This document shows, in pieces, positions 8,025-49,419 of a DNA stretch of 64,000 bases. Location: NCBI GenBank assembly GCA_964541305.1, contig CAZIPE010000001.1:12138-76137 (forward strand), given 5' to 3'. The stretch is from an uncultured Candidatus Saccharibacteria bacterium (GTDB lineage Bacteria; Patescibacteriota; Saccharimonadia; Saccharimonadales; UBA7683). The notes below the pieces were generated by a model that made no database searches, was not told where the DNA came from, and was given only the letters and a program-made list of their open reading frames with translations. A program made the position numbers and the translations under genes. Numbering within the stretch: the stretch's first letter is position 1; each line of letters starts with the position of its first letter.

Positions 8025-8420
8025 ATGAGCAATATAAAAATAGCGCTGATTGAAGACGATAAGGACATAGTAGATATGTATGTGACTCGTTTTCGAATTA
8101 CCGGTGGTTTTGAAGTAAAAGTTGCTAATGATGGAGCCCGTGGCTTAGAGCTTATTCACACTTTTCAACCCGACATCATTCTCCTGGACATGATGATGCC
8201 ACGTATGTCGGGCATAGAAACACTCACCCGTCTTCGAAAACTGCCCCACGGAGAAGACTATAAGGTCATCGCATTGACCAATATGAAAGATAATGATACA
8301 GTCAACAAAATTAAACTATTGCATGTCAGCGATTATCTCGTTAAAGCTGAACACTCTCCGGGCGCCATTGTTGAGAGAATCTATAGTATTGTCGGACAAA
8401 CTGCTGACGAAACAAAATAA
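8025..8420 (+). CDS. Stand-alone response-regulator receiver (CheY-like) protein
   Basis: IALIEDDKDIVDMY ... ILLDMMMPRMSGIE ... KVIALT receiver signature with no output domain. ATG at 8025; the ORF track begins at GTG 8004. Confidence 0.8.
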   Translation: MSNIKIALIEDDKDIVDMYVTRFRITGGFEVKVANDGARGLELIHTFQPDIILLDMMMPRMSGIETLTRLRKLPHGEDYKVIALTNMKDNDTVNKIKLLHVSDYLVKAEHSPGAIVERIYSIVGQTADETK

Positions 8421-8467
8421 CGAATAATACGGCAGGACGCCTAGGTCTATACTCCTTATCCTTTCTT

Positions 8468-8476
8468 TGCTACAAT
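8468..8476 (+). promoter_or_regulatory. Extended -10 element TGcTACAAT upstream of giant HK gene
   Basis: TGCTACAAT lies 42 nt upstream of the TTG start. The same 12-mer TGCTACAATAGA recurs upstream of the second giant gene at 13891. Confidence 0.35.
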
Positions 8477-8517
8477 AGACTACAGTTACGAGGAGATAAT
8501 ACAAGGGGAATAAGGGT

Positions 8518-16900: not shown

Positions 16901-19900
16901 AGCTTGATGCTAGTACGGCCGTTTCGCTTTCTATGTCTGACACTTCCTCACCGCTGCTTATAGGTTCGGCACAAGGGCCGGTGACCGCCAGTAAGGGTAC
17001 TGGTAAATTTAAGGGTATGCTCGATGAAGTTCGCATTAGTAATTCTGCGCGGACCAACTTCACAACGACACCTTATACCAGCGAAAGAGTGTCTGCTCGG
17101 CTTGCTACGGCAGATTACACCTCCGGGATTGCCTCGTGGGATGATTATATTTCTTCCGAAACAACAAATGGCGGCACCCTCACCTATCGTCTCTCAGATG
17201 ATGACGGCACCACCTGGAAATTCTGGAATGGTTCTGCTTGGGCTGTCTCTGCTGATCTGAGCCAGGCCAATGGTGCGACTGACATTGGCGATCATATCGC
17301 CACTTTCCCAGTCTCTACTGGCGGCATAACCTGGCAAGCGGTGTTTGATGGTGATGGCAATCAGCGCGTACAGCTTAATTCGGTTTCGCTTGCAGCCACT
17401 GCAGATAACACCGCACCTGCAGCAAATGCATCGAGCATTGTAATGAAAACGAGTCCTTCCGGCCCTACGATCAATTCCGGACAATGGACAAATGCCCAGG
17501 AGCCGTACTTTTCGTGGACACCTGGGAACGATGCCCAATCTACCATTAAGGGTTACTGTCTCTATCTAGGTACATCTCAAAGTGATGACCCGGTAACTTC
17601 CAAGGGTCTGCTTGGCACAAGTCCTCTCGATACCGACGGTGAATGTCAATTCGCTGTTGCCGGAGACTCGGTAGATCTTTCCACATCAGGTTATCTCGGA
17701 AGCCCTCTCGTCAGTTCAAATTCAACTTACTATCTTAATGTTAAAGCCATAGATAATGCCGGTAATGTATTCACTGGTGCCAGTGAGAGTTTTGCGTTTA
17801 AATTCGACAATACCAATCCGACCAATCCTCTCTTTGTGTCTGCGCCCTCACAATTTGTGTCTAACAAGCAGGTTACAATTACCTGGCCAACTTCTAATGC
17901 CACCGCTGCAGACGATAATCATTCTGGTGTTGCAGGTCTGCAATACAAAATTGGCGCTGGTGGAACCTGGTATGGCGATGGGCATACAGGTGCTCAAGAT
18001 GTTACCGACCTTCTGGCAGACGACGGGAGTTACCAGACAATCGATCCAATCGACTTTAATGCATTGAGTGATGGAAATAACACCATCTACTTTAGAACTT
18101 ATGACAATGCCGGTAACTTTTCTGCTTCGACAGTGACAGGAGTGATTAAAATTAATACCACCTCACCTACTGGACCACAAAATGTGACTGCCACACCAGC
18201 TACCAATACCACAAATGCCTTTGCTTTCAGCTGGAGTCCGCCAGCTACATTTGGAGGTTCAGCAAGCAACTTGGAGTACTGCTACTCGATCAATACTCTT
18301 CCCTCTGTTAATACTTGTACGTATACCGACCCCGGCGTGACAAGTCTTGTTTCCGGAGCGTATGCAACTCAGCCTGGCGAAAACACTTTTTATGTTGTGG
18401 CTAAAGATGAAGCTGGAAATATTAATTACGCTACCACCAGCAGTGCTATATTTACTGCCAACACCTCTGCTCCTGGTATTGCTCTTAATCTGGATATCGT
18501 CGATATAAGTGTGAAATCGACTAATAATTGGCGTTTAGCACTATCATGGGACGAGCCGACCGATGCGGGAGCTGGAATAGCAAGCTATAAGGTATATCGT
18601 TCTGCTGATAATATAACGTTTACCAACGTTGCCTCGACCGCTGGAACCAGCTATGTTGACGGCGGACTCTCTCAGCAACCGTATTACTACAAGGTTCGAG
18701 CCTGCGATTCTGCGAATAATTGCGGTGCTTATACGAGTGCCGTAGACGAAACACCAACCGGAAAGTACACGACTGCTGCAAATAGTACCAGTGCGCCGGA
18801 AGTATCAAGTGTCAGTACGCGTAAAGCAACCATTAGTTGGTCTACGGATCGTCAAAGTGATAGCCGCATTCAATATGGCATAAAGAGTGGTCAGTATTTC
18901 GCTACCGAAGCTGCCATATCTGATCAAGTCACCGACCATGAAGTACTCCTTAATAATCTGAGCGCTGGCACCACCTATTATTACAAAGCTAAATGGACAG
19001 ATGAAGATGGAAATACGGGACAATCGGCAGAGCTTAGCTTTAAAACAGCACCAGCCCCAGTCGTAAAAGAGGTCACTTCAGAACCATCCTTGTCAGATGC
19101 AGATATTAACTTCACCTCCAAAGATGCCGCAAAAGTGAAGATATACTTTGGTAAGTCAGAAAGCTTTGGAGGCCTCACCACCCTAAACACGTCGTTGGCT
19201 GAATCGAAATACGGCACCACGCTTACGGGCTTGGACGACGGAAGTAAGTATTTCTTTAAACTCAATACTCTCGACAGCGATGGTAATGAATACGAAGGAA
19301 ATGTCTATTCTTTTACCACTCCCCCACGTCCTCGCATTACGAATTTACGATTCCAACCTGTAAAAGACCAGCCCAGTAGCACCCAGAGAGTAACCTGGAA
19401 TACCAACGTTCCTTCGAGTAGTGAAATTACCTACGGCGTTCGTCGACCTACGCAGTCGCTCTCGCAATCTAAGCTCACCACTGAGCATGAGATAACAATT
19501 AAGGGTCTATCTGATGACAGTGACTACGTTTTAATAGCCCGGTCGCGTGATGCCAGCGGTAATGTTGCCACCTCCGATCAGCAAAGCTTTAAAACCGCTC
19601 TCGATACCCGCCCGCCGAAAATTGCCGATATTACGGTCGATACCTCAATACGCGGTACCGGGGCTGAAGCGCGCGGTCAGGTGGTTATTAGCTGGAAGAC
19701 AGATGAACCAGCCACCAGTCAGGTTGCTTACGGTGAAGGATCATCCGGTTTTCTCTCGAGTGTCAGCAGCGAGGATGCCAAGTTAACTACCGACCATGTT
19801 GTAGTGGTATCAGATCTTTCAACCTCACGTGTCTACCATTTCGAAGCACGATCATTTGACCGGGCTCGGAATGAGGCCAAGGGTGATCAACAAGTTGCCA

Positions 19901-19974
19901 TCATCGGTCGAGCCAGTGAAAATGTGCTCAGCATCATATTCAACGCGCTGCAAAAGATGTTCGGAATAAACTAA
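13912..19974 (+). CDS. Giant (2020 aa) N-terminally anchored surface protein: LamG/ConA-like domains, ~14 x 55-aa Trp/Gly-rich propeller-like repeats, FN3 and purple-acid-phosphatase-N-like FN3 modules
   Basis: N-terminal TM anchor (LASFLTVLFAGSLLLRF). LamG-like signatures (W.HIAATYDG..MKLYINGQ...FKGMLDEVRISN). Repeats of consensus GDGEVWRYNGSxWTKIGGDGxxSSW. C-terminal modules with SW.TD...Y......H.V.L..L..GT.YYYK pattern repeated 4 times. Confidence 0.85.
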   Translation: MRVKKDRKLVFFKRIQDVYVRLGYSSVSKAIKRWLRLPAKAIAGTLLTVHGWLLRHSRVYRAVSRYGSHHPRQRILASFLTVLFAGSLLLRFGAYASDVNKVWDFSNPTDYSLEDSDKLEYEGSSVRLKAQNYATDSNTKALYHLDEASGTTVADSSSNSNTATATNPTWGTGNLNNALQLNGTTSQLSADDSTSLSLTQSNTLEAWTKFNDSFTAGSTAGRQSVIDKGPYQLYYDDETGKAVYELQNSSATNWQQQAGGGVNRSWDLDGKNSADSSVGIGNDLYIGTGSSTAGDAEVWKLSAAGVWTQIGGAGLNNSWAANTFETIASLETDGTNLYAGTGLSSGDGEVWMWNGTTWSRIGGDAINSSWAVNTYNSVLSMDYFGGNLYAGLGSGTGGGEVWRYNGSSWTKIGGDGLSSSWAAAFTVKRLENDGTNLYAGTGNTAGMADVWRWNGTIWAQIGGDGINSSWAASTYEEVLSSFYMGSNLYIGLGTTAGDAEVWRWSGGAWTKLASSGVGFPAATYTGVYSLSGDGTNLYAGVGSGVNLGDVWKYNGSTWTQVGNDGLNSSWTGGRLVSTMAYVNSKLFAHNTFSAVATIPLYSYNGSVWQREGGQYFDGSWGYTAFNAVQSMTTSSGKLYAGLTSTYGGAIVFEFNGGVWQQIGGNLTNGSWDLGTFNAIESMTSYNGNLVVGTTGTVNGDAEVWSWDGSTWTKLGGDGLSSSWNVSYSATKSLAVNAGILYAGVGSTGNNGGIWKYESGTWVKIGGDGTNGSWNNVFRYVTSMNFYNGELVAGGTGSTTSSAEVWKWNGSSWTKIGGDGVGSSWNAANYLEVNALATYQGKLIAGIGGSAGDGEVWRYDGTTWTLIGGDSVDSSWDGTTTHRRVATLTVYNGDLYAGTSGSAGDGEAWRYNGSTWSQAGGDSISSSWTNAIISVRSMVVYKGKLYTGLGDNISLHPLVYSLGNNGYLESTNSSYNTDWRHIAATYDGTTMKLYINGQLDASTAVSLSMSDTSSPLLIGSAQGPVTASKGTGKFKGMLDEVRISNSARTNFTTTPYTSERVSARLATADYTSGIASWDDYISSETTNGGTLTYRLSDDDGTTWKFWNGSAWAVSADLSQANGATDIGDHIATFPVSTGGITWQAVFDGDGNQRVQLNSVSLAATADNTAPAANASSIVMKTSPSGPTINSGQWTNAQEPYFSWTPGNDAQSTIKGYCLYLGTSQSDDPVTSKGLLGTSPLDTDGECQFAVAGDSVDLSTSGYLGSPLVSSNSTYYLNVKAIDNAGNVFTGASESFAFKFDNTNPTNPLFVSAPSQFVSNKQVTITWPTSNATAADDNHSGVAGLQYKIGAGGTWYGDGHTGAQDVTDLLADDGSYQTIDPIDFNALSDGNNTIYFRTYDNAGNFSASTVTGVIKINTTSPTGPQNVTATPATNTTNAFAFSWSPPATFGGSASNLEYCYSINTLPSVNTCTYTDPGVTSLVSGAYATQPGENTFYVVAKDEAGNINYATTSSAIFTANTSAPGIALNLDIVDISVKSTNNWRLALSWDEPTDAGAGIASYKVYRSADNITFTNVASTAGTSYVDGGLSQQPYYYKVRACDSANNCGAYTSAVDETPTGKYTTAANSTSAPEVSSVSTRKATISWSTDRQSDSRIQYGIKSGQYFATEAAISDQVTDHEVLLNNLSAGTTYYYKAKWTDEDGNTGQSAELSFKTAPAPVVKEVTSEPSLSDADINFTSKDAAKVKIYFGKSESFGGLTTLNTSLAESKYGTTLTGLDDGSKYFFKLNTLDSDGNEYEGNVYSFTTPPRPRITNLRFQPVKDQPSSTQRVTWNTNVPSSSEITYGVRRPTQSLSQSKLTTEHEITIKGLSDDSDYVLIARSRDASGNVATSDQQSFKTALDTRPPKIADITVDTSIRGTGAEARGQVVISWKTDEPATSQVAYGEGSSGFLSSVSSEDAKLTTDHVVVVSDLSTSRVYHFEARSFDRARNEAKGDQQVAIIGRASENVLSIIFNALQKMFGIN

Positions 19975-37523: not shown

Positions 37524-39047
37524 CTATTTCAAAAATAGTAAGTATGCTAAATTGTTTGATTCAATCTTGTATTCGAACCCTGTTGTGTTTAAAAACAATG
37601 TAAAGTCTTTCGCGTCTGGTGCTATGACATCGAATCCAATCAAGACTCTCCCGCTATCTGCGCCCATTCCTCTGTAGTGAAATAGGCTAATATTCCAGCG
37701 TCGACCGAGTGCTTTTAAGAAGTCACCAAGTGCGCCCGGTCTTTCAGGAAAGTCAAAATGCACGAGGATTTCATTTTTTGGCCCTTCAGCTCCTCCGACC
37801 ATGTGGCGAATATGTTCTTTTGCAAGTTCGTTATCAGTCAGGTCTATTATGTTGTATCCTTTTTTGGTTAGTCTCGTAGATATCATGCGAGCATCATTGA
37901 CGTCATGTGTTGTAATGCCTACGAGTATGTGAGCTCGTGACAAATTATTCTGCCGATAATTAAACTCACTGATATTGTGTTTTCCAAGATCTTTACAAAA
38001 ATGTTCGAGTGCGCCTTGTTTTTCAGGTAATTCAACTGAAAAAAGTGCTTCGTGACCACTACCAATGAGTGTTCGCTCTGTAATAAACTGCAGTCGCTCA
38101 AAACTCATGTTTGCGCCACTATTTATAGCTACAACATGGTCGGTTTCTGTCAGTGTGTGTGTTTGGGTGTATTTTTCTATGCCCGCAACACCAAGGGCGC
38201 CAGCTGGCTCAACAATTGAGCGTGTTTCTTCATAGATCCGTTTAATGGCAGCACATAATTGATCGTTTGTTACTAAAACAACCTCATCTACGTATTTTTT
38301 CGCGATATCAAAAGTGTTCTTACCGATTTGCTTAACAGCTACCCCGTCAGCGAATATACCCACATGAGGCAAGCTTACTCGTTTATTATGCCTGAGTGCT
38401 TCATGAAGCGTTGCGGCATCTTCCGGCTCAACTCCAATGATTTTGACATCGGGATGAGTAGATTTGATCGCACGAGCAACTCCTGCAATTAATCCCCCGC
38501 CACCAACAGGAACAAACACATGTGTAACCGACGGCAACTGTTGGAGTATTTCGCCACCAATTGTTCCCTGGCCCTCAATGACAAGTGGGTCGTCAAACGG
38601 ATGTATGAATATACGACCGGTCTTTTTTCGTAGTTTCTCGCAGTGTTCAGCTGCCTCGGAGTAATTGTCACCGCTGAGAATAATCTCGGCTCCATAGCCC
38701 GCTACTGCATCAATTTTTATGCGTGGTGTAGTCTTTGGCATAACAATTAATGCCGAAATACCTAATTTCTGCGCACTTAACGCGACACCCTGTGCGTGAT
38801 TTCCGGCACTTGCTGCAATTACGCCCGACTTCTTCTCTACTGGTGTGAGCGACAGCATCTTATTGTAAGCACCCCTGATTTTAAATGAAAAAACTGGTTG
38901 CATGTCTTCCCGTTTAAAATATACATTGGTAGATAGTGCTGTACTCAATTTGGGCGCCTTCTCAAGTGGCGTACGAACAACAACATTATATATGTTTGAT
39001 GTATCGGAGATGCCTGGTATGTTATTTGTCATCACTACCTTGTACAA
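37524..39047 (-). CDS. ilvA: Threonine dehydratase, biosynthetic (two C-terminal ACT-like domains)
   Basis: PLP-lysine motif FKIRGAYNKM and SAGNHAQGVA; 507 aa. Confidence 0.9.
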   Translation of the reverse strand: MYKVVMTNNIPGISDTSNIYNVVVRTPLEKAPKLSTALSTNVYFKREDMQPVFSFKIRGAYNKMLSLTPVEKKSGVIAASAGNHAQGVALSAQKLGISALIVMPKTTPRIKIDAVAGYGAEIILSGDNYSEAAEHCEKLRKKTGRIFIHPFDDPLVIEGQGTIGGEILQQLPSVTHVFVPVGGGGLIAGVARAIKSTHPDVKIIGVEPEDAATLHEALRHNKRVSLPHVGIFADGVAVKQIGKNTFDIAKKYVDEVVLVTNDQLCAAIKRIYEETRSIVEPAGALGVAGIEKYTQTHTLTETDHVVAINSGANMSFERLQFITERTLIGSGHEALFSVELPEKQGALEHFCKDLGKHNISEFNYRQNNLSRAHILVGITTHDVNDARMISTRLTKKGYNIIDLTDNELAKEHIRHMVGGAEGPKNEILVHFDFPERPGALGDFLKALGRRWNISLFHYRGMGADSGRVLIGFDVIAPDAKDFTLFLNTTGFEYKIESNNLAYLLFLK

Positions 39048-39405
39048 TTACTGATATTTCAACTAGTAACGGAACTTCACCGGCTACTGGTGGTAGTTCT
39101 CGTACGCCAACACATTCTCGAGTCGGTGGATATTCGCCAAAGAAGTCACCGTATAACTCGTTCATTTTTTCAAAGTCTGACATGTGCGTGAGATATACCC
39201 GTGAATTTACAACCGAATGTCTCGATAGTTTGTTTTGCTTAAGTATTGTATCAATATTTTTCAGTGCTTGAGTCATTTGGTCGCTAAAATCGTGAGAGGC
39301 TGTTTTGCTAACTGGGTCGACACCGACTTGACCTGCAACAAAGTATAGTCCACCAGCTTTGCGTATTATTGAATATGGTCCATATGTCTCGGTTTTCATA
39401 TACAT
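39022..39405 (-). CDS. ridA: RidA/YjgF reactive-intermediate deaminase
   Basis: 127 aa, YjgF signature (GPYS...AGGLYFVAGQVG...PARxxVxVxxLP...VEIxxIA). Overlaps the ilvA start. Confidence 0.85.
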   Translation of the reverse strand: MYMKTETYGPYSIIRKAGGLYFVAGQVGVDPVSKTASHDFSDQMTQALKNIDTILKQNKLSRHSVVNSRVYLTHMSDFEKMNELYGDFFGEYPPTRECVGVRELPPVAGEVPLLVEISVIVQGSDDK

Positions 39406-39408
39406 ATA

Positions 39409-40605
39409 TCAATTGGTTATTGCATTGGAATTTGTTTTTGCGGCGTGCGTGCCTTTCCGCCCTTGATATTTTCCTTCCTCGTGGATTGCGTTTTGTGCAT
39501 GTCCCCAAAAAGTTGGATCATAAGGTGTGTATAGGCGGTGACCATTTTCTCCCCCCGCAATAATACCAGCACTATGTATGCCAGATCGATGAACGTTCGT
39601 GTCGCGGCCTACAACTGGACTTTGCCTAGACACCTCTTGACCTGCGTATTTCATCACAGCTTCTGCTGTTAATACTGAATATTCTGGATTAAAACGCCAT
39701 CCGACAGGAACACCTAAATCACCAGTAAACTTAAAGACTCCTCCTATAAACGGAAAGACATCTGCATTACCTGCCCTCTCACCAAGTCCACAAATTGTTG
39801 TTTCTGCCTGCACCTTAATTATTCTTTCATATTGCTTGGAATATTTTGCCGCAGCCTTTACAAGGCTATAGCTGTTGGCCACTGCCATGCCAAGGTCGTT
39901 GTGGCAATGTGCAGATATCGTCACGTCGGGATTTAGTGGCTGTATCCATGCTATCGCTTTGTAGTAAAAGTCTTCCATCCACGAAGGATCGCGCTGGCCG
40001 ACTGTATCAGGGAGATTGATGACATCAGCACCTTCATCTACTGCAGCTTTTATAACGCGTTCTAAATACACTGGATCGGTTGTACTTGCAGCTTCTGCAG
40101 AAAACTCGACAGTGCCATCTGACGACTGATCTACTAATTCACGTGCCTGCTTTACTGCAGCCCTCCCCATACGAAGCACTTCATCGGGGCTCATATCTGG
40201 AAATTTTTCAGCCATATGTTCGTTATCGGTTGACACAAAGGTGTGGATGCGTGGTCGCGAAGCATATTGCACAGCATCCCAGGTTGCCTCAATGTCGGCA
40301 GGTGTTGTGCGTGATAAACCCGCAATTATTGGTGAGTCCCATGCGGTATCTTGGTGACCATCGGGTGTCCAGAGGTGTGTGGAATATATCTCATTGCCCA
40401 CTTGCTTGGATACTGAACTCACTTCTTCGCTGTCACCAGGTGTTGCTGGAAACCCCGCCTCTATTACTCCAATTCCAAGAGAAGCCAGTTTGTCAGCTAT
40501 TTCTGGCTTTGATCCCTCGGGAAACTGATTTTCTTTAGGTAGTGCCTGAGCACCATCGCGTAAAGTTGTGTCGAATATAGTTATATCTACATGTGCTTCT
40601 GTCAT
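39409..40605 (-). CDS. HMGL-like 2-alkylmalate synthase (citramalate/2-isopropylmalate synthase family, short form)
   Basis: DTTLRDGAQ and HCHNDLGMAVANS motifs. At 398 aa it lacks the LeuA C-terminal regulatory domain. Position beside ilvA suggests a CimA-like role. Confidence 0.75.
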   Translation of the reverse strand: MTEAHVDITIFDTTLRDGAQALPKENQFPEGSKPEIADKLASLGIGVIEAGFPATPGDSEEVSSVSKQVGNEIYSTHLWTPDGHQDTAWDSPIIAGLSRTTPADIEATWDAVQYASRPRIHTFVSTDNEHMAEKFPDMSPDEVLRMGRAAVKQARELVDQSSDGTVEFSAEAASTTDPVYLERVIKAAVDEGADVINLPDTVGQRDPSWMEDFYYKAIAWIQPLNPDVTISAHCHNDLGMAVANSYSLVKAAAKYSKQYERIIKVQAETTICGLGERAGNADVFPFIGGVFKFTGDLGVPVGWRFNPEYSVLTAEAVMKYAGQEVSRQSPVVGRDTNVHRSGIHSAGIIAGGENGHRLYTPYDPTFWGHAQNAIHEEGKYQGRKGTHAAKTNSNAITN

Positions 40606-40836: not shown

Positions 40837-40954
40837 ATTAATTTTTGGAATGTCAATTCAATCTACAAACAACATGATTTCAAAGTATGTGCACCGCGCA
40901 TGTTTTAGTATTGTGCGCTAAATTGTAGATTGAGCCAGACAACTAACAGGATGT

Positions 40955-40984
40955 AACGAGCTCAATCACGGAAGGGAGCTCTTT
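40955..40984 (+). terminator. Hairpin + U6 immediately upstream of gene 41002 start (leader terminator / attenuator)
   Basis: GAGCTC-12 nt-GAGCTC followed by TTTTTT, 17 nt before the ATG. Confidence 0.3.
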
Positions 40985-41001
40985 TTTAACGAAAAATTAT
41001 C

Positions 41002-41400
41002 ATGACTACTATTGAACATACAACTCTACAAAACGGCGAAAGTGTCAGTGACTCACTAACAGTATGTGAGATTGATGAACAAGTGCAAGCAGTGGCCAGC
41101 AACTTCTTTGGATCGATTGACAAAGTACTAGATAGAAAAGATGCAAAGATACACGTAGCATATTTTGCTTCAGGTATTGCAGTACACGAAGATGTTCGAG
41201 AACAGCTCATGGCTGGTGTTATGGAGCTGTGCGATCACATAGATAGTAACTGTGTGCAATCACAGTTAAAAATATCTGATGTGGCCACCGCTATAGTTGA
41301 ATCGAAAAAAAGCGGAAATTTGCTTATTGAAGAGGTACACACTGATAGTGATGATGCTGTATTCGGATATTGGTATTACATTATGCCTTCTCCGGAGTAA
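41002..41400 (+). CDS. Hypothetical protein
   Basis: 132-aa ORF preceded by a ~160-nt structured leader. Confidence 0.4.
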   Translation: MTTIEHTTLQNGESVSDSLTVCEIDEQVQAVASNFFGSIDKVLDRKDAKIHVAYFASGIAVHEDVREQLMAGVMELCDHIDSNCVQSQLKISDVATAIVESKKSGNLLIEEVHTDSDDAVFGYWYYIMPSPE

Positions 41401-41417
41401 CGTGGAGTCTTTCGTTA

Positions 41418-43787
41418 TTATTTCAGTTGTTCTAATTTAAACTGAGTGGCGCGCTCTGCAGCGAGACGCGTGAGTTCTGGGTCTTCACCTTGGTTCACAA
41501 AGATCATGTTTTCCGCAAGAATTGGGTGCACACTCTCGATAGCGTCGTGCATTTGTTTGGCAAGCTTGCGGTAGCCTGGATGACCTTGAGGGCTTGTACG
41601 GAGCTCCATAAAGTGAAAAGCCTCTCGTGCATTCATAACTACCTTCCAGCGCATTTTGTGACCAAGCAGTGTGGCATACTGCGCTTCGTTGTGATAGCCT
41701 CCATCCCACAGAATTTGATACAACTTCCGGCTCAGTTCAAAACAAGTTTCAAATAAATCTTCGCATCCTGCTTCGCTGACAAGTTTTGGTACCTCGTAAC
41801 CATAATGAGGACTCAGTAATTGCCATTCCATACTATCTACCATGCGATGTCGCTGTAAGTCTCGAAAAATTCCGTAGTCGCAAAGTAGGTCGAAACTGTA
41901 GTGTGCTACTTCAAGTGCGCGACCAGGCTTGTGTCGCCGATTAAGGCGTTCGCCAATGTACGCCTTAAAAGCTTCTTCTTTTTCTTGGTAGCTCAGCTTA
42001 TCAACTGCTCGTTCAAGCTCACTAAGACCCATGCTACTGCTTTCGTACAGCATATGAGGTAGCAGATCCAGCTCATTTTTTGGCCAGAAATCTACCAGCT
42101 CTACCGCTTCTCCATCCGCACCTTTCATGGGTTGTAGGCTGTGTTCTGCGGTGAATTTTTGCAATGCTTTTCGTGTATTGGCGCGGTATGCCATCCATGC
42201 ACCACCGCGATCTGGCTTATCAGCACGCTCCAAGAAAGTCGGCACTACTTTACGTGCTTCATCTAAAATTGCTTGACCGGTATCCGTCGATTCAACCAAT
42301 TCCTCGCTCATTAGGTGCATTATCAGGCTTTCAAGTGCCTGGCCACTAGCGAAAATGCCAACAGTTGATTTGGTGGCTACAGGTAGTACTGGTCGTGCCG
42401 CATCACACGCCTGAGCACGTATCGCCGATTTCCATGCCCCGTCACGCGTATCTTCAGGTTCATCAGACGATGCTTCAACATGCTGAGTAAGTTTATGAAC
42501 TAGTTGCGAGTACGTTTCAAACAGTTCATCCATTGTGTTGTCATACGACTGAGTAGTCTTTTCGTCTAAGTTTGTAGGCGTGTAGTATTTAAATGCTCCA
42601 AATTCATCTTTTTGATCGAAATAGATGTAGCGTGTTGATTGCTCTAAATAGGCGGCTAGTCTGCCCCATTCAAGCTTTTTGGTGAGCAGATTGCTCGCAC
42701 CTTCAACGACAAAGTGAATTCCGGTAAGCTGTTGAACGCTATCGTCGCCGTAGGCAGTAATGACACGTTTGAGTAGATTTTGGTCTTTTCCTTCTTTTCC
42801 TGCAAATTCATCCAAGATTGTGATTCGCATATCATCACCTCGACGCGAAAGCCGAGCCATAGCCGCTGCAATTGTTTGGTTGGATATTTTATCGGTAAAA
42901 ACGTAGACATTGTCTTTTGTGTTGGTGACTGCTTCTGAAAGGTACTCGGTACCTTCTTTCGTAATTGAATAACTACCGTTCTGGTTCTTTGTGACGTAGG
43001 GGTTTAGTTCTTTAGTTTTTTTAGGAGCAAACACTGTTTGAGCAGACTGTCCCGACGTATCTTCCGGTTTCTTTTTGCGTAATTTACCGAGCATAGGCTG
43101 GATCCTTTCCCAGATGAGGTTATTGATTGTTGGAATACTTTGAAGTTCACCATCTTTCACACAGTCAATAGACTGGAAGGTATCTGGGAAGGCTTCGCGT
43201 AGTTGTTTGTAGGTTTCCACTGCATTTTCGAGATGATGTATATCTGCCTCGTGAATGTCTCGTTTCTTGTCTGTATAGCTGCGTTTCTCTTTTTTATCAA
43301 CCAACTTCTGAGCTACACCTGCTTCTACTAGCAGTATAATACTTAGGTCGGGACGAGGGATTTCAAGCATCCCGAACTCTAAATTGTCGAGCCACTTAAA
43401 TAGTTCACGGCGTTCAGCTAGTGTTTTAAATTTGCCCCCTTGATGCGCCATGCTTGAACCAGCAAATCGGTTGCAGAGAACTATCTTACCAGCAGCCAGG
43501 TCACGTTTCATGTCTGCTGAGGCATCAAATCTGTCCAGAGCGTAAAAAACTGATGGTATGTAGGGGCCGAGGTCATCACCAGAACCATAGTCACCATTAA
43601 GATACTTGCGCACAAAGTACGACGAGTCTTTCTCATATTGCGGGAAATCGTAAGTTGCCACATCATAGCCCTCTGATTTTAGTCGTTCAATCAGAAGTTT
43701 AAACTGAGTACCTTTGCCAGACCCGTCTGAACCTTCTATGACAATGAACAATCCGCTGTTGGTGTCGGACGCTTCCGAATTGTTCAT
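41418..43787 (-). CDS. Fusion protein: thymidylate kinase (N-term) + tandem-duplicated flavin-dependent thymidylate synthase ThyX
   Basis: Tmk Walker A IVIEGSDGSGKGTQ at the N-terminus. Two ThyX-like halves: the first with AAAMARLSRRGDD, the second with the RHR motif (FRDLQRHRM) and ELRTSPQGHPGYR. Confidence 0.8.
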   Translation of the reverse strand: MNNSEASDTNSGLFIVIEGSDGSGKGTQFKLLIERLKSEGYDVATYDFPQYEKDSSYFVRKYLNGDYGSGDDLGPYIPSVFYALDRFDASADMKRDLAAGKIVLCNRFAGSSMAHQGGKFKTLAERRELFKWLDNLEFGMLEIPRPDLSIILLVEAGVAQKLVDKKEKRSYTDKKRDIHEADIHHLENAVETYKQLREAFPDTFQSIDCVKDGELQSIPTINNLIWERIQPMLGKLRKKKPEDTSGQSAQTVFAPKKTKELNPYVTKNQNGSYSITKEGTEYLSEAVTNTKDNVYVFTDKISNQTIAAAMARLSRRGDDMRITILDEFAGKEGKDQNLLKRVITAYGDDSVQQLTGIHFVVEGASNLLTKKLEWGRLAAYLEQSTRYIYFDQKDEFGAFKYYTPTNLDEKTTQSYDNTMDELFETYSQLVHKLTQHVEASSDEPEDTRDGAWKSAIRAQACDAARPVLPVATKSTVGIFASGQALESLIMHLMSEELVESTDTGQAILDEARKVVPTFLERADKPDRGGAWMAYRANTRKALQKFTAEHSLQPMKGADGEAVELVDFWPKNELDLLPHMLYESSSMGLSELERAVDKLSYQEKEEAFKAYIGERLNRRHKPGRALEVAHYSFDLLCDYGIFRDLQRHRMVDSMEWQLLSPHYGYEVPKLVSEAGCEDLFETCFELSRKLYQILWDGGYHNEAQYATLLGHKMRWKVVMNAREAFHFMELRTSPQGHPGYRKLAKQMHDAIESVHPILAENMIFVNQGEDPELTRLAAERATQFKLEQLK

Positions 43788-44497
43788 CGTGCTTTTAAAC
43801 CTTTGATTGCCTCCGGCATGGTGCGCTTGTCTTTGTAGGCGCGGGGTAGCATCTGGGCAGGTGTCCAGTTGGAGATAAGTTCATCCAAATTGGTCCCTGT
43901 TTGGTATTTACCACTAAATCCGTCGTTTCTGCCTTCACCATAATTTCCCTCAACCTCGCCAGTTTCTAGAAATATAGCTTGTGCAATCCGCTCCCCAACA
44001 GGTAGAAGCACTGTCTCATGCTCATTTAGGTTATATATCTCAAGCGTCAGACGGTTGATATAGCCAGGATCTACCCAGCCAGCATCAAAGCACACCGCTA
44101 CACCATTTCGTCCCCAGCTGGAGCGTGATTTCACTTCATATGCGCCTGGTGGTTTAATACCAAAGAATTCATGAGTGTGCGCCAATATTCTTTCACCTGG
44201 ACGCAGCGGAATGACTGGATGTTCTGGCGGGATGCCCTCTAATAACTTTGTCCCGTTGCTGGCACACCAGTCTTGATGTGAAATTGCTTGCTGCACGTCG
44301 CCAAAGTACCGCTTCACATCTGCTTCATCGAATGGATTGTAGACAAATCCTTTCTTAGCCTGACCTGTGCGGTAGTAGTAATATCCTAGTGTTACATCCA
44401 AACTTGCATGAGAAATATGAGCATCATTAAACGGTTCACATACTATATGACCCTCTTTTAATGCTTGTCGAATTTGTGTGTTACTGTAGACTCCCAC
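43784..44497 (-). CDS. dcd: dCTP deaminase (dUTPase superfamily)
   Basis: VKSRSSWGRNGV matches the Dcd Ser-rich motif. GERIAQ resembles the Dcd/Dut beta-strand motifs. ATGA overlap with the tmk-thyX gene. Confidence 0.75.
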   Translation of the reverse strand: MGVYSNTQIRQALKEGHIVCEPFNDAHISHASLDVTLGYYYYRTGQAKKGFVYNPFDEADVKRYFGDVQQAISHQDWCASNGTKLLEGIPPEHPVIPLRPGERILAHTHEFFGIKPPGAYEVKSRSSWGRNGVAVCFDAGWVDPGYINRLTLEIYNLNEHETVLLPVGERIAQAIFLETGEVEGNYGEGRNDGFSGKYQTGTNLDELISNWTPAQMLPRAYKDKRTMPEAIKGLKAR

Positions 44498-44616
44498 GTA
44501 TACCCTCCATTACTTGTACGCGAGCCCACCTTCGCTTTGAACTATATTATATCAAAAAACTGACAAATCACTAATCCCTGTGGTACGATTGAAATCAATG
44601 TAAAAGGAGTTAGCTT

Positions 44617-45066
44617 ATGTCAGCTGAAGCACGTAAATTATATGTAGGTTGTGGTCTCACTCATGCTCCTGAAACATTCAGAAACTCAGTGGATGGCTTC
44701 AAAAAGGTTTTACGAAGTAATGGGCACGAAGTTTTTGATTTTGTCGGATTAGTCGCTGGAACTGAGGCTGATGTATATAACTGGGATATTGGACACTGTG
44801 TAGCCCGGGCTGACCTGCTAATTGGTGTCTGTGATGAGCCAAGCATAGGGCTTGGCTGGGAGCTGGCTGTTGCTGCAGAAAAACTTGAAATTCCTGTTTT
44901 GGCCACCGCTCATACTGACTCCAAAGTTACCCGACTAATTCACGGTGCAGCAGAAGTGTTACCTAATGTTCAATTCGCATCATATGATAATCTTGAGCAT
45001 GATATACCACCGCTTGTTGACGAGATTCTGCTCGCAGCTTACGGTCTTAAGGCGGTTATAAAGTAG
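44617..45066 (+). CDS. Nucleoside 2-deoxyribosyltransferase-like / DNPH1 (Rcl)-like protein
   Basis: LYVGCGLTH...ADLLIGVCDEPSIGLGWELAVA pattern of the PF05014 fold. Confidence 0.5.
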   Translation: MSAEARKLYVGCGLTHAPETFRNSVDGFKKVLRSNGHEVFDFVGLVAGTEADVYNWDIGHCVARADLLIGVCDEPSIGLGWELAVAAEKLEIPVLATAHTDSKVTRLIHGAAEVLPNVQFASYDNLEHDIPPLVDEILLAAYGLKAVIK

Positions 45067-45788
45067 ACTGACTTTAACTGGTTACTGGCTATGTCACTGA
45101 GTATGACCGACGCCGTTGCGCTCAACTGACTCAGGGAGCCGCTATTGATAATACGTGAGTCGTAGTGTATTTTAGATCGCTCTCGTTCGGTTGGATCATC
45201 GGTATCCGAAGTTTGTTTGTCGGGTCGGACTATTTCAACAACAAAGCCACCAGCGTTGCTTGTTGTGTCCGCGTCACCGGGAAAACGTAATCCGCCAATA
45301 ATGTATAATTTGCACCCATTTTGTTCAGCCGTTTTAGCTCGACGAATCAGTTCGTCGTACCATATAGTTGGGAATAATCTTTTAACAAAATATCCACCAA
45401 ACCACTGTAAAATAGACCGATGATTTGCTTTGTTGGCAGTTGTAATCTGTTCAGTGACTAGTTTTGGATTCTTCTGCGTTTGTAGTATGTAATTATGCAA
45501 TTTTACATATTCGCTCGAACTTAAGTCTGTATCATCTGTGATGTATAGGTCTGAGGTGCGTACTTTCGTATGCAGATGTTTATGTATACGTTCTTGGAGT
45601 GAATCGAGCCACTTGTTAATTTCGGGTATGTCAGTAGACGTCGGTAGGTCAATCTTGGCATCATTTGCAAATTCACTAATCAATCGTGATGATTCATCAT
45701 GAATTCCAGTTGGCTCGTGCGCCAAAAAAGCTTCGGCTAAACTTGTTTTGCCGTGTCCGATAGCTCCAGTGATACCGATTAAGATCAT
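45039..45788 (-). CDS. P-loop nucleoside/nucleotide kinase family protein
   Basis: N-terminal MILIGITGAIGHGKTS (CoaE/dNK-like Walker A). Confidence 0.5.
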   Translation of the reverse strand: MILIGITGAIGHGKTSLAEAFLAHEPTGIHDESSRLISEFANDAKIDLPTSTDIPEINKWLDSLQERIHKHLHTKVRTSDLYITDDTDLSSSEYVKLHNYILQTQKNPKLVTEQITTANKANHRSILQWFGGYFVKRLFPTIWYDELIRRAKTAEQNGCKLYIIGGLRFPGDADTTSNAGGFVVEIVRPDKQTSDTDDPTERERSKIHYDSRIINSGSLSQLSATASVILSDIASNQLKSVYFITALRP

Positions 45789-45822
45789 CTTCCTAGTGTA
45801 TCAAAGGTAGTAGAAATGACAG

Positions 45823-46251
45823 TTAGAAGCTCAGGCGGTATGCGGGTTTTTTTGAGTGCAATGTAATTCTTCGTTGCTTGCCTGTAGTCTTAATCAAATG
45901 GAAATGTTGATGTGGTATCGATTTTGTTGGTGATGACGGGGCTCGCGCATAAAGGTTATAGCCGCGCTTTTCATATGCACCAAGCAATTTCATGTAGTCA
46001 AGCAACTCTTTGTCATTCAAATCTCCAAGGCTACTGACGTGTCGTAGCGGGGTGATCATTAGGTGTTCGCTAACCTTCACATATTCCCAGAGGGAATAAG
46101 GGAAAATATTTTCAATTACACGACAGTATTTTGTTGATTGAATATGTGACTTATCACTGTTTTTAATATCACAAAACACACATATATTTGGTGGTAGCGT
46201 TTTTAGGTATGCTTTGTATTTCTTTTCCTCGGTTCTGTTTCTTGTTGCCAT
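45823..46251 (-). CDS. HIT-family (histidine triad) hydrolase
   Basis: HxHxHxx motif IPHQHFHLI near the C-terminus. Confidence 0.55.
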   Translation of the reverse strand: MATRNRTEEKKYKAYLKTLPPNICVFCDIKNSDKSHIQSTKYCRVIENIFPYSLWEYVKVSEHLMITPLRHVSSLGDLNDKELLDYMKLLGAYEKRGYNLYARAPSSPTKSIPHQHFHLIKTTGKQRRITLHSKKPAYRLSF

Positions 46252-46259
46252 AAGTTTAT

Positions 46260-47045
46260 TTATACGTTGCCAGTTATGCGTTTTACGATTGCTGTCGTTG
46301 AAAAGGTGCCCACAAGCTTATCGTGAAAATAGCTGTCGTTATCGATTCTAACTATCCTTGTTTCTTCAAGTCCTTGTTCTTCTGGTGCCAGAGATAATAT
46401 GTCATCAGACTCATGAAAAACTGACCATACATCTGGTTTCAGGTGTCTAGCAAGGGGTATCGTATCTTCGTGGTTGGTGCCCTTTAGTGAAACAGGATCA
46501 TGGATAGTGACTGCGTCTGCGATTGGCATAAATGTAGATTGGTTCGGTGTTTGATGCATGGCGGTTGCTACGCTTCGTGCTCGTGTTAACCACGAATATA
46601 TAGGTCGGGTGCTATTCCCTTTTTCAGGTTGGAAGCCCTTGCGTTTCATTACCCAATCATCCCCATCAACACTAACTACTAGCTTTAGTGTGCCACTACC
46701 GAGTACACGTTGTGCGGTTTCAATTTTCTCTTCTTCGCACATTGTATCCCACGCCGTTGGTCCGAACTCTTTCGTTACATGAAACGGGACTCCCTGTAGC
46801 TTAGTGTCCGCAAGATAACCCACGTGCGTAAGGTGCATTAGATCATAGCAACCACTAGTGAAAACAACTGTTTTATCATCAGACTTCCACTTACTGACTT
46901 GCTCGACTAGTAGCTCTGAAGAACCTTCTGTTGACAGAGGGTTAAACAGTCGATCGTCCCAAGGATTTCCAATTAGTTCCTGTATTTGAGGTACTGATGT
47001 GGTTTGATTATATACCCTGCCCTCTCTCACTCTTTCTTCACTCAT
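46260..47045 (-). CDS. Cytidylyltransferase-like nucleotidyltransferase
   Basis: FTSGCYDLMHLTHVGYL is a (H/T)xGH nucleotidyltransferase motif, as in RfaE domain II / TagD. Confidence 0.55.
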   Translation of the reverse strand: MSEERVREGRVYNQTTSVPQIQELIGNPWDDRLFNPLSTEGSSELLVEQVSKWKSDDKTVVFTSGCYDLMHLTHVGYLADTKLQGVPFHVTKEFGPTAWDTMCEEEKIETAQRVLGSGTLKLVVSVDGDDWVMKRKGFQPEKGNSTRPIYSWLTRARSVATAMHQTPNQSTFMPIADAVTIHDPVSLKGTNHEDTIPLARHLKPDVWSVFHESDDILSLAPEEQGLEETRIVRIDNDSYFHDKLVGTFSTTAIVKRITGNV

Positions 47046-47108
47046 GAATAGTATAGTATCACACTACCACTACGTGGACGCAAGTGGAAAGATAGAATCT
47101 GTTGTCAT

Positions 47109-48092
47109 CTAAACTTCGCTAGAAACGATTTTAACGCTTGGTCCCATAGTGGTTGTCATGGAAACACCCGTAATGTATCCACCCTTGATACTCGTTGGAC
47201 GAGCATCTTTGATACCCTTGAGTACTGCTTGTGTGTTTTCTGCTATCTGAACGGGTGTAAAGCTTACTTTCCCGACAGCTTGGTGAATGATTCCTTGTTT
47301 ATCAACACGGAACTCTACTTTACCGGCTTTAGCTTGCTTTACTGCATCTGCCACCTTAGTAGTAACAGTACCGCTCTTAGGGTTGGGCATTAAGCCTTTT
47401 GGCCCGAGTATTCGAGCGTATCTACCTAATTTTGCCATTAATTGAGGTGTTGCGATAAGTACATCAAAGTCGATGAGTTCTTTATCAAGCTGTTGCAAGA
47501 ACTCTTCCTCTCCAACAATATCTGCTCCAGCTTTTTTAGCAGCTTCGTGTTGATCTGCTGGTGCGAATACCGCCACCCGAAGTGTTTTACCTGTTCCGTG
47601 AGGCAGTACAACGGTTGCTCGGATGTTCTGGTCGGCCTGTCGTGGGTCAACATTAAGGTTGACATGGACTTCAATACTGGCGTCGAATTTAACGGTGCTC
47701 GTCTTGGGAAGTACTTCTGATGCCTCCTTGATACTGTATTCTTTTGAATTATCAAGAAGTTCGGCAGCTTTACGGTAACCTTTAGAGCGTCGTTCACTCT
47801 TCAAGCGAGTTTTTGGTGCAGGACCACGTTGAACTTCAGCAGATAGGTCTATCTCGCCCTTAGCTACTTGCTCCTTTCGTTCTTCTTTTTCAGCTAACTC
47901 TTCTGCTTCGTGTAGTGCTTTGGCGCTCCTTTTCCCAGCTTTAGCTACCTTTGTCGCATCTACTGATTCTGTTTTTTCTTCTACAGACGCTACAGTTGCG
48001 AGTGCTGCTTCAATTTCAGCAATGGTATTTTGATTAGATACGTCTAACTTTAGTTTCTTTGCTTGTTCTAATAGTTCTAACTTCTTTGCCAT
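47109..48092 (-). CDS. rplA: 50S ribosomal protein L1 with ~95-aa Lys/Glu/Ala-rich N-terminal extension
   Basis: Core VNLNVDPRQADQNIRATVVLPHGTGK...GPKGLMPNPKSGTV. No internal Met between residues 1 and 97. Confidence 0.9.
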   Translation of the reverse strand: MAKKLELLEQAKKLKLDVSNQNTIAEIEAALATVASVEEKTESVDATKVAKAGKRSAKALHEAEELAEKEERKEQVAKGEIDLSAEVQRGPAPKTRLKSERRSKGYRKAAELLDNSKEYSIKEASEVLPKTSTVKFDASIEVHVNLNVDPRQADQNIRATVVLPHGTGKTLRVAVFAPADQHEAAKKAGADIVGEEEFLQQLDKELIDFDVLIATPQLMAKLGRYARILGPKGLMPNPKSGTVTTKVADAVKQAKAGKVEFRVDKQGIIHQAVGKVSFTPVQIAENTQAVLKGIKDARPTSIKGGYITGVSMTTTMGPSVKIVSSEV

Positions 48093-48176
48093 GGTGGCTC
48101 CTTTTCTCCCTCCTTAGCTTTATGCGCAGGAAGGTCGTGGTTCAAACGGCTTTCGGCCTCCCACGTAGATTATTTG

Positions 48177-48413
48177 TTAACTTTCAACTTCTGGGTACTT
48201 GTTGTCTACAACAGCTTCTCGGTGTCTTACTTCAAGCGTTTGAACTTCGACTTCTGCCTTGTCGACAAATCTACGAAGACTCTCTACGCGAGGTCCGTGA
48301 GGGTGCTCAAGAGCAAGCTCGTTTGCCAGAACAACTGCTCCGTACTTAAAGCGTACATTCGGGTTGTTGAAGTATCCTTCAGGAACAAACAAGTCACGTG
48401 ATGTTTCAGACAT
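48177..48413 (-). CDS. Hypothetical 78-aa ORF between rplK and rplA
   Basis: Starts 3 nt after the rplK stop, with GAGAG 7 nt upstream. Occupies the usual L1-leader position. May be non-coding. Confidence 0.3.
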   Translation of the reverse strand: MSETSRDLFVPEGYFNNPNVRFKYGAVVLANELALEHPHGPRVESLRRFVDKAEVEVQTLEVRHREAVVDNKYPEVES

Positions 48414-48969: not shown

Positions 48970-49419
48970 TTAAACAATAGGTTTTCTAACGGTGCTAACC
49001 AGGGCAGATTGTGCTATTGCTACTTCACTCTCTTCGGGCGCTAGGGTTGACGCCCAGGCAATTGCTTCACCATCTAAATCGGAGGCAATGAGCTGTACCA
49101 GGACTCCAAAATCATCAGCAGCTCTTGCTGACATTACTTCCTCAAGTAGATCGTCTGGCTCATCCTCCCACAACGGGAATATGGTCGACCGATCATCCCA
49201 GGATACTACCGCTGCGACATCTACAGCTTCTCTTAGCAATGTGAAGAACTCACCCTGTATCCTATCAGCTTCGTCAGCTAATCGATCCGCTACTATTCTC
49301 GCTACAAGAGCACGTTTAATTGCTGTGCGTACCTCAGACGTAAATTCCGTCCCTTCTGGCATAAGGGTTACGCCGACAATTTCGTCGGCATCTGTACGGA
49401 GTATTCGCTCACCATCCAT
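48970..49419 (-). CDS. Hypothetical acidic protein inserted between nusG and rplK
   Basis: 149-aa ORF in operon orientation, starting 9 nt after the nusG stop. Locally higher GC. No motif. Confidence 0.35.
   Translation of the reverse strand: MDGERILRTDADEIVGVTLMPEGTEFTSEVRTAIKRALVARIVADRLADEADRIQGEFFTLLREAVDVAAVVSWDDRSTIFPLWEDEPDDLLEEVMSARAADDFGVLVQLIASDLDGEAIAWASTLAPEESEVAIAQSALVSTVRKPIV

Follow-up and report, generated by a model that had tools for sequence, protein, structure and literature searches.

Here we describe a predicted two-gene thymidylate operon in a 64,000-nucleotide stretch of DNA from an uncultured Candidatus Saccharibacteria bacterium (contig CAZIPE010000001.1, positions 12,138 to 76,137 of the forward strand), hereafter called the window. 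The first gene, dcd, encodes a dCTP deaminase. The second encodes a 789-residue protein in which a thymidylate kinase (Tmk) is fused to two tandem copies of the flavin-dependent thymidylate synthase ThyX. Judged by sequence, degeneration has taken complementary courses in the two ThyX halves, so that the catalytic motif is complete only across both. We favor, with a probability of roughly 0.72, the reading that this is a housekeeping operon whose doubled ThyX works as a pseudo-tetramer with two active sites.

Domain organization of the fusion protein

A previous reading of the sequence, the original prediction, delineated six open reading frames (ORFs) in 41418–47045 of the window, and all six are present where it placed them. 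The fusion gene occupies 41418–43787 on the minus strand and encodes, in order, Tmk, a linker, ThyX half A, and ThyX half B. The Tmk domain (residues 17–208; 43164–43739, minus strand) matches Pfam PF02223 with an E-value of 7e-16 and is of the Mycobacterium-like type. The linker (residues 209–302; 42882–43163, minus strand) consists of a lysine-rich low-complexity stretch followed by N-terminal strands. These strands are the same as those preceding half A in unfused doubled ThyX, and the unfused homologues start with the same 'VTN..D..VF' segment.

Half A (residues 303–517; 42237–42881, minus strand) and half B (residues 578–755; 41523–42056, minus strand) match the Pfam family Thy1 (PF02511) with E-values of 3e-20 and 8e-20, respectively, and the profile alignment of half B to Thermotoga maritima ThyX has an E-value of 1e-11. 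When the halves are scanned apart, each spans nearly all of the 191 profile positions. The whole protein scores 140 bits and each half ~72 bits, compared with a cut-off of 24.8. The predicted Tmk-ThyX-ThyX architecture, including a ThyX-like middle domain, is therefore borne out. The fusion scores 80.5 bits against the thyX equivalog model of NCBIfam (TIGR02170), which is below the cut-off of 87.9. Single-sequence phmmer searches of the PDB were too weak, giving only marginal ThyX matches (E 0.004) for the ThyX part, and a profile hidden Markov model of each half was used for the ThyX alignment.

The best 120 database homologues (62–95% identity) are all 750–806 residues long, and each carries both Pfam domains. 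NCBI labels close homologues 'FAD-dependent thymidylate synthase [Candidatus Saccharimonadales]', and JGI labels homologues 'thymidylate kinase/thymidylate synthase ThyX'. In addition, an independent assembly holds a contig identical to that of the window. Because these 120 homologues come from independent assemblies and sources and are all full length, a frameshift artefact, which the original prediction had named as a risk, is excluded.

An AlphaFold2 model of residues 256–789, built on 42 diverse homologues, has a mean predicted local distance difference test score (pLDDT) of 93.5 and a predicted template modeling score (pTM) of 0.89. The monomer is thus predicted confidently, both overall and for the packing of the two halves. 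Its structural matches in the PDB are ThyX (Mycobacterium tuberculosis 2AF6 and T. maritima 1O26) or the ThyX-like methylase PolB. Normalized to the target, their template modeling (TM) scores are ~0.7, whereas normalized to the query they are only ~0.3, indicating that none of the PDB matches listed is a solved structure with the doubled architecture.

Division of the catalytic residues between the two halves

The two ThyX halves share only ~11% identity (hhalign E = 0.0017), indicating that the duplication is ancient. The description of the protein as a pseudo-dimeric ThyX is correct in that there are two tandem ThyX halves, but it understates their divergence and the complementary loss of catalytic residues.

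The hidden Markov model of each half was aligned to T. maritima ThyX, the sequence of which was verified to be identical to PDB 1KQ4/1O26. Catalytic columns were counted in 43 sequences with 32–53% identity to the window protein and in 121 close homologues. In half A, the positions corresponding to T. maritima R80, E86, S88, R90, and R147 retain the same residue in 43/43 sequences, and Y91 is retained in 41/43. The R78 position holds Trp in 20 sequences and Arg in 17; the H79 position is never His (Gly, Ser, Pro, or Ala instead); R165 is replaced by Gln in 38/43 and R174 by Leu or Met in 41/43. Half B presents the reverse pattern. Arg is found in 43/43 sequences at each of the R78, R80, R165, and R174 positions, and His in 41/43 at the H79 position. 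E86 is variable (Glu in 19/43), S88 is replaced by Gln in 39/43, R90 by Leu in 37/43, and R147 by Gln in 28/43, and the consensus has no conserved residue at the Y91 position.

In the window protein, half A retains the equivalents of R80, E86, S88, R90, and Y91 in the segment WGRLAAYLEQSTRY (42627–42668) and that of R147 as R465. It lacks the equivalents of R78, H79, R165, and R174. Half B retains RHR (41844–41852) together with the equivalent of R74, and its NAR...ELR segment (41598–41633) provides the equivalents of R165 and R174. It lacks the S-x-R-Y loop and the equivalent of R147. Accordingly, the ThyX motif RHR-x7-S-x-R-Y is incomplete in either half and complete only across both: the region reads WGR...S-T-R-Y in half A, and RHR with no S-x-R-Y in register in half B. 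The split is ~100% fixed among the 121 close homologues, with WGR...EQSTRY in half A and RHR in half B.

Each half resembles homotetrameric ThyX (TM0449, PDB 1O26; M. tuberculosis, PDB 2AF6/3GWC) in fold (TM ~0.7), and the two halves together hold all hallmark residues (RHR, E86, S88, R90, Y91, R147, R165, and R174). Unlike those enzymes, the fusion protein has two copies per chain, each with a partial catalytic set, and an N-terminal kinase.

Predicted active sites of the doubled ThyX

In the solved ThyX homotetramers, three subunits build each active site (PMC3498832; PMC6514825). Subunit A provides the RHR motif and M. tuberculosis R199 (equivalent to R174), which contact the phosphates, ribityl chain, and flavin of flavin adenine dinucleotide (FAD), as well as dUMP (PMC6514825). 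Subunit B provides Ser71 and Arg190 (equivalent to R165), which bind the same FAD (PMC6514825). Subunit C provides Arg87, Ser105, Arg107, and Tyr108, which bind or cover dUMP, the last three belonging to the S-x-R-Y loop (PMC6514825). Half B of the doubled ThyX retains exactly the arginines of the A and B roles, and half A retains exactly the loop of the C role.

Because the two residue sets reach one site from different subunits in the solved homotetramers, we predict that a dimer of the doubled ThyX acts as a pseudo-tetramer. The two halves would descend from an ancient internal duplication and would have specialized since. Half B would hold FAD and polarize dUMP through its RHR, R165, and R174 equivalents, and half A would supply only the dUMP-closing loop (Glu and S-x-R-Y) and the R147 equivalent. 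In the dimer, which would have pseudo-222 symmetry, the B halves would pair across the true two-fold axis with two FAD bound, and each A half would lend its loop to one B-half FAD site. The outcome would be two complete and two vestigial sites, i.e., one FAD per chain, compared with four sites per four folds in homotetrameric ThyX.

ThyX is an antibacterial drug target whose mechanism has long been studied as a puzzle. Because three subunits build its active site, what each of them contributes is difficult to separate. If the prediction is true, a natural enzyme with these roles divided between halves would offer an asymmetric system ready for structural and kinetic studies.

Dcd and Tmk in the proposed route to dTDP

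The dcd gene (43784–44497, minus strand) encodes a protein that matches Pfam DCD (PF22769) with an E-value of 2e-31 and a score of 109.6 bits (cut-off 27). It starts with GTG, and a GGAGG Shine–Dalgarno sequence lies 7 nt upstream. Its stop codon TGA (43784–43786) overlaps the ATG of the fusion gene (43785–43787) as ATGA, in line with the translational coupling that had been proposed. The catalytic motifs SRSSWGR (Ser/Arg) and TLEIYN (Glu) align to those of solved enzymes, and the score against TIGR02274 (87.8 bits) is slightly under the cut-off of 92.8. The best solved relatives are dUMP-forming, i.e., 4XJC (B. halodurans), 2QXX (M. tuberculosis), and 1OGH (M. jannaschii), and the monofunctional Dcd of E. 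coli is not among the PDB matches at E <= 1e-3. The sequence thus suggests that the window Dcd is probably of the dUMP-forming, bifunctional type. It resembles the bifunctional dCTP deaminase:dUTPases (1OGH, 2QXX/2QLP, and 4XJC), its best solved matches with E-values of 1e-13 to 1e-6, and differs from them by an insertion of ~50 residues (residues 40–95).

A putative promoter, the extended −10-like element TGATATAAT (44546–44554, minus strand), can be read from the sequence in the 119-nt divergent spacer between dcd and a gene for a 149-residue protein. A two-hexamer promoter scan did not report this element, and a promoter and terminator scan of 40900–48300 returned fewer sites than shuffled controls.

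The kinase domain contains the P-loop GSDGSGKGT, FPQY, and LDR, with NRF instead of DRY. Its best PDB match is M. tuberculosis Tmk (6e-14), to which the P-loop Asp/Lys, FPxY, LDR, and the motif Arg align. It scores 58.8 bits against Pfam PF02223 (cut-off 27), 60.8 bits against TIGR00041 (cut-off 83.25), and 112 bits against NF005923 (cut-off 193), its best NCBIfam match. The Arg of the DR(Y/H) motif is present in 120/121 homologues, and the preceding Asp is replaced by Asn in 104/121.

Many other Saccharibacteria have a different, classical bacterial-type Tmk (EGPEGVGKTTQ...REPDSQSDLTAR; REPDSQ) fused at the same position (L006, L010–L012, L019, L020, L023, L024, L027, L032, L033, L038, and L039 in our locus comparison). 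The presence of two Tmk types on the doubled ThyX suggests either domain replacement or two independent fusions. At one locus (L037), the doubled ThyX is unfused, and a possible Tmk-like gene lies directly upstream (a weak tblastn match with 29% identity).

Taken together, the domains support the compact route from dCTP to dTDP read in the original prediction. Dcd would deaminate dCTP and probably also remove pyrophosphate, yielding dUMP directly, as its nearest solved relatives do. The doubled ThyX, by its family and conserved catalytic residues, would methylate dUMP to dTMP with FAD, NAD(P)H, and methylene-tetrahydrofolate. The N-terminal kinase of the same chain would phosphorylate dTMP to dTDP. 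Since the synthase is fused to a dTMP kinase, dTMP is the likely product. The pathway itself is ordinary, housekeeping thymidylate supply (dCTP to dUMP to dTMP to dTDP) from a two-gene operon, and the interesting part is the enzyme architecture. A tblastn search of the 64-kb window finds no thyA, tdk, folA, or second thyX.

The bifunctional protein joining dihydrofolate reductase to thymidylate synthase (DHFR-TS) of protozoa and plants carries two consecutive enzymes of the thymidylate cycle in one chain. By analogy, the fusion protein may likewise place consecutive steps of dTMP metabolism in one polypeptide, an arrangement that invites channelling. The folds of DHFR-TS (ThyA and DHFR) are unrelated to those of the fusion protein, in which the synthase is joined to the enzyme of the following step, the kinase, and not to the one that recycles the cofactor.

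A role of Dcd as a nucleotide-depleting defence dCTP deaminase was considered and dropped: among Dcd, the kinase, and the remaining accessory proteins, PADLOC assigns none to a defence system. Its sole match in the block is a generic 'HIT family' model (5e-5) on a 142-residue protein.

Conserved position between rplA and rplJ

We compared 42 Saccharibacteria-type loci by mapping the window proteins. The constant gene order is nusG-rplK-rplA-[variable]-dcd-fusion-[variable]-rplJ-rplL. The dcd gene lies directly upstream of the fusion gene in 33 of the 38 loci with enough flank, and the two genes overlap or abut in the loci examined. rplA is found upstream of the fusion gene in 33/42 loci and rplJ downstream in 34/42; most loci without rplA or rplJ are contigs that end too early. 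The pair keeps this place throughout Saccharibacteria, with 52–78% identity in the ThyX halves.

In the window, the upstream boundary is rplA (ribosomal protein L1; 47109–48092, minus strand; Pfam Ribosomal_L1, 2e-62, residues 130–318), and the downstream boundary is rplJ (ribosomal protein L10; 36122–36646, minus strand; matched by Pfam Ribosomal_L10 in the identical gene carried by the source contig). The interruption between them is ~10.5 kb, longer than the block first delineated. The rplA-dcd spacer contains genes for a 261-residue protein, a HIT protein, a kinase, and the 149-residue protein, and the fusion-rplJ spacer contains an orphan 132-residue ORF, an HMGL-like synthase, RidA, IlvA, and a GGDEF gene. 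Elsewhere, the rplA-dcd spacer holds a HAD hydrolase and a ParB-like gene, an LPG-synthase-like gene, or a stand-alone Tmk.

The block has a G+C content of 0.43–0.45, equal to that of its flanks, and no integrase or transposase is found between rplA and rplJ in the window. The constant order across loci, the overlapping or abutting genes, and the matching G+C content indicate that the pair is not an inserted island. Instead, the dcd–fusion pair is an old, vertically inherited part of the ribosomal neighbourhood that predates the divergence of the sampled Saccharibacteria, beside which lineage-specific nucleotide-handling genes would come and go. The original prediction was therefore right to place the block between rplA and rplJ but not to regard it as an island interrupting the ribosomal cluster, as the core pair sits there lineage-wide. 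A mobile island or prophage remnant was rejected on the same grounds: the G+C content, the same locus in nearly all sampled relatives, and the lack of integrase and transposase.

The ultra-small epibionts of the candidate phyla radiation (CPR) appear to keep a tightly packed dCTP-to-dTDP route in a conserved ribosomal gene neighbourhood. The route is thereby a candidate for an essential function and can serve as a marker of synteny.

Accessory genes in the rplA-dcd spacer

The four genes between rplA and dcd are optional nucleotide-handling additions outside the conserved core. Their predicted families are upheld at the family level by phrog_139, HIT, the Rcl/DNPH1 profile, and the cytidylyltransferase fold.

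The 149-residue protein (44617–45066, plus strand) belongs to the nucleoside 2-deoxyribosyltransferase superfamily and is closest to DNPH1/Rcl, a deoxynucleoside monophosphate (dNMP) N-glycosidase. Its family has 118 members, mostly from CPR bacteria. PF05014 (Nuc_deoxyrib_tr) matches 23/31 members, and the window protein itself has no Pfam match. The family profile aligns to Rcl/DNPH1 (1e-7) over the catalytic core, including the catalytic Glu of 'GLGWEL' (G-x-G-[YW]-E-L); it differs from DNPH1/Rcl in being a small family found mostly in the CPR clade. The gene is convergent with that of the 249-residue kinase, which it overlaps by 28 nt, and it is not found at this locus in the other Saccharibacteria loci examined.

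The 249-residue P-loop kinase (45039–45788, minus strand) is of the phage-type dNMP kinase family (DNMK). It resembles the T4/T5-type enzymes by PHROG phrog_139 (1.8e-16) and scores 24.7 bits against Pfam DNMK, under the curated cut-off of 27.1. In 8 other loci, the rplA-dcd spacer holds homologues with 33–41% identity.

The 142-residue HIT-family protein (45823–46251, minus strand) has the HQHFHLI triad and scores 21.6 bits against Pfam HIT (cut-off 21.5). The 261-residue putative nucleotidyltransferase (46260–47045, minus strand) has a predicted cytidylyltransferase-like fold, with the motifs VVFTSGCYDLMHLTH and FSTTAIVKR, and gives no Pfam match above the curated cut-offs. In the alignment, its first motif is HxxH (H-L-T-H), and FSTT is present. 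The family is rare, with 21 homologues among 5.8 billion clusters, and its profile matches cytidylyltransferases with an E-value of 4e-6 over only 30 residues. The AlphaFold2 model (pLDDT 89) superposes best on HldC (5XF2, TM 0.72) and TagD (1COZ, TM 0.78), from which the protein differs in having HxxH instead of HxGH and ~100 extra residues.

The nucleotidyltransferase and HIT genes look like a conserved two-gene module. The former is directly followed by the latter (~143–177 residues), often with overlap, in 5/5 contexts: the window (46260–47045 and 45823–46251), L014, L085 (5442–6636), L086 (856–2099), and L087 (6001–7328). Four of the five pairs are just downstream of rplA. In L087 (ENA ERZ25039476, contig_9823), the order is rplA, nucleotidyltransferase, HIT, DNMK, and ThyA, and the contig ends there. 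The ThyA gene (8237–8965) scores 143 bits against TIGR03284 (cut-off 108) and may be a non-orthologous replacement of the ThyX fusion at the same locus.

Alternative explanations

Several observations weigh against the two-site pseudo-tetramer in a housekeeping operon. Its oligomeric state and the pairing of the halves are inferred from residue roles and a monomer model, and the review that assigns the other residues gives no subunit for R147 (PMC6514825). Some invariant motifs have no counterpart in single-domain ThyX (GDDS in half A; NRRHKPGR and R362/R368 in half B), and half A still has Arg at the R78 position in ~40% of the wider family (17/43). The half B of Saccharibacteria has 'L-[TS]-P-[RH]-Y' three residues downstream of the expected S-x-R-Y, which could be a shifted remnant of the loop; it lacks conservation in the wider doubled ThyX family. 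Neither Tmk nor Dcd reaches the equivalog cut-offs of NCBIfam, Tmk has NRF in place of DRY, and sequence does not distinguish a monofunctional from a bifunctional Dcd. We find no measured activity in the literature for any member of the doubled ThyX or fusion family. Some of these features would suit an enzyme that is active in another way than as a half-of-sites pseudo-tetramer. Substitute residues, such as GDDS in half A or the invariant NRRHKPGR in half B, might stand in for the lost ones and keep all four sites working, or the chain might act as a monomer whose single site is intramolecular. Arg persists at the R78 position in part of the family, and the monomer model is already compact and confident. 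We consider this reading unlikely. Of the four residues that bind the FAD phosphates and polarize dUMP, three are missing from half A, where Gly/Ser/Pro/Ala, Gln, and Leu/Met stand instead. Moreover, FAD in the solved enzymes also needs Arg165 of a second like subunit, so two B halves, and hence a dimer, are required.

The original prediction had also raised a phage-like pathway for hypermodified pyrimidines. In that case, the block, or at least its accessory part, would make or remove a non-canonical pyrimidine nucleotide (hydroxymethyl or hypermodified dU/dC), as in phages. The 249-residue kinase belongs to a phage dNMP kinase family, the closest relative of the 149-residue family is DNPH1, named 5-hydroxymethyl-dUMP N-hydrolase in solved entries, and the rare nucleotidyltransferase–HIT pair has no known function. 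In addition, one relative (L087) has the nucleotidyltransferase, HIT, DNMK, and a ThyA-family enzyme in the same slot, and phage pyrimidine hydroxymethylases derive from the ThyA family. Nevertheless, we judge this reading improbable, and for the core pair it finds no support; for the accessory genes, handling of modified deoxynucleotides is conceivable, with nothing specific in its favor. The pair lies on the chromosome, occurs lineage-wide, and includes a fused dTMP kinase, pointing to dTMP as the product, and between them the two halves have every catalytic residue that ordinary dUMP methylation needs. The L087 ThyA clears the equivalog cut-off for thymidylate synthase. Most relatives lack the accessory genes, indicating that the core function does not require them, and base-modifying transferases of the kind usual in hypermodification clusters (glycosyl-, amino-acyl-, or other) are not seen. 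We give almost no credence to the idea that the long ORF is an assembly or frameshift join of separate tmk and thyX genes, or that the block is a recent mobile or phage island. The block does sit within a ribosomal protein cluster that is normally contiguous, next to a phage-like kinase. Against this, besides the full-length homologues, the identical independent contig, and the G+C content, the same gene order recurs across dozens of species-level genomes, no phage record covers >=80% of the fusion protein, and no viral contig has the fused kinase. A more far-reaching version of the pseudo-tetramer reading, which we offer only tentatively and hold to be doubtful, is that the doubled ThyX is a natural 'split active site', in which one half serves solely for FAD binding and catalysis and the other solely as a lid over the substrate. 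The fused kinase would take dTMP directly, and Dcd would dock as the third partner of a three-enzyme thymidylate metabolon; separately, the nucleotidyltransferase–HIT pair, the dNMP kinase, and the DNPH1-like hydrolase might form a hitherto undescribed pathway of deoxynucleotide editing or sanitising.

Distribution of the doubled ThyX

A search of 1.84 billion cluster representatives with the ThyX part gives 686 matches at E <= 1e-30, a mix of proteins of ~520–560 residues (doubled ThyX only) and ~720–800 residues (kinase-fused). A scan of one genome per GTDB species finds the doubled ThyX in at least 591 species-level genomes. Saccharibacteria are the top scorers (55–73% identity), followed at ~40% identity by Acidimicrobiia and other Actinomycetota, Chloroflexota/Dehalococcoidia, Nitriliruptorales, and Acidobacteriota. 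The doubled ThyX proteins examined outside Saccharibacteria have ~535–540 residues and no kinase, and a Microgenomates example is likewise unfused. None of 42 distant loci has Tmk, dcd, or a ribosomal gene as a neighbour of the doubled ThyX. Since the unfused form also occurs in Acidimicrobiia, Chloroflexota, Acidobacteriota, and large phages, the suggestion that the block is a feature of reduced genomes is not sustained. Annotation by the single-domain motif (RHR...SxRY) and by equivalog cut-offs misses or mislabels the family.

A 'duplicated ThyX' in Chloroflexi was noted and called uncharacterised by Valas and Bourne in 2009 (PMC3224940), in the single sentence on the duplication that our literature search turned up. 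Unfused proteins of this kind (520–560 residues), found in Chloroflexota, Acidimicrobiia, Acidobacteriota, and other CPR groups, can be aligned over their full length with the doubled ThyX of the window (32–53% identity) and have the same invariant residues. They differ in lacking the kinase domain, the dcd neighbour, and the ribosomal-cluster context. Our literature search found no paper on ThyX in Saccharibacteria and none describing a ThyX-Tmk fusion, and the duplication is unmentioned in ThyX reviews and in a 2023 thymidylate phylogeny paper. The doubled ThyX is thus widespread and apparently uncharacterised, and its fusion to a kinase is undescribed in the literature found. The chlamydial ThyX (~529 residues), reportedly assayed by Griffin et al. 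in 2005, may belong to the long form. Chlamydial sequences have been reported to be too divergent for ThyX phylogenies (PMC6171736).

Viruses also carry doubled ThyX genes. The jumbo phage Tunturi_5 (Tunturiibacter phage, PP885688.1) has one at 46546–47976, with both halves covered, and ~20 IMG/VR contigs (L088–L113) have others; the phage and viral copies are 20–39% identical. A few viral loci (L120–L123) have a dcd-like gene ~1 kb upstream of the doubled ThyX. A phage origin of the fusion was examined and rejected, as phage records fall short of 80% coverage of the protein and the doubled ThyX of IMG/VR is never accompanied by the kinase.

Other features of the window

The rplA product has 327 residues, with an N-terminal extension of ~125 residues (47718–48092) that is rich in Lys, Glu, and Ala; the Pfam L1 domain begins at residue 130. 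The extension is conserved in 33 related loci. Two orphan ORFs break up the otherwise conserved cluster, one of 78 residues (48177–48413, minus strand) between rplK and rplA, and one of 149 residues (48970–49419, minus strand) between nusG and rplK. In the related loci examined, other Saccharibacteria have small, unannotated ORFs at these places, with no detectable sequence similarity to them.

The genes for the HMGL-like protein (citramalate/isopropylmalate synthase-like), RidA, and the threonine dehydratase IlvA, between the fusion gene and rplJ, span 37524–40605 on the minus strand. RidA-IlvA is found at the same place in L007, L011, L015, and L027, and an HMGL-like gene in L026. Genes for amino-acid metabolism such as these would not be expected in a CPR genome.

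Two giant ORFs are located where the G+C content rises to ~0.50, compared with 0.43 elsewhere. The first (8518–13851, plus strand) encodes a protein of 1777 residues with ten NHL repeats, fn3 domains, and a C-terminal HATPase_c domain, and the second (13912–19974, plus strand) encodes one of 2020 residues with Laminin_G_3 and fn3 domains. Both are probably surface or sensor proteins.

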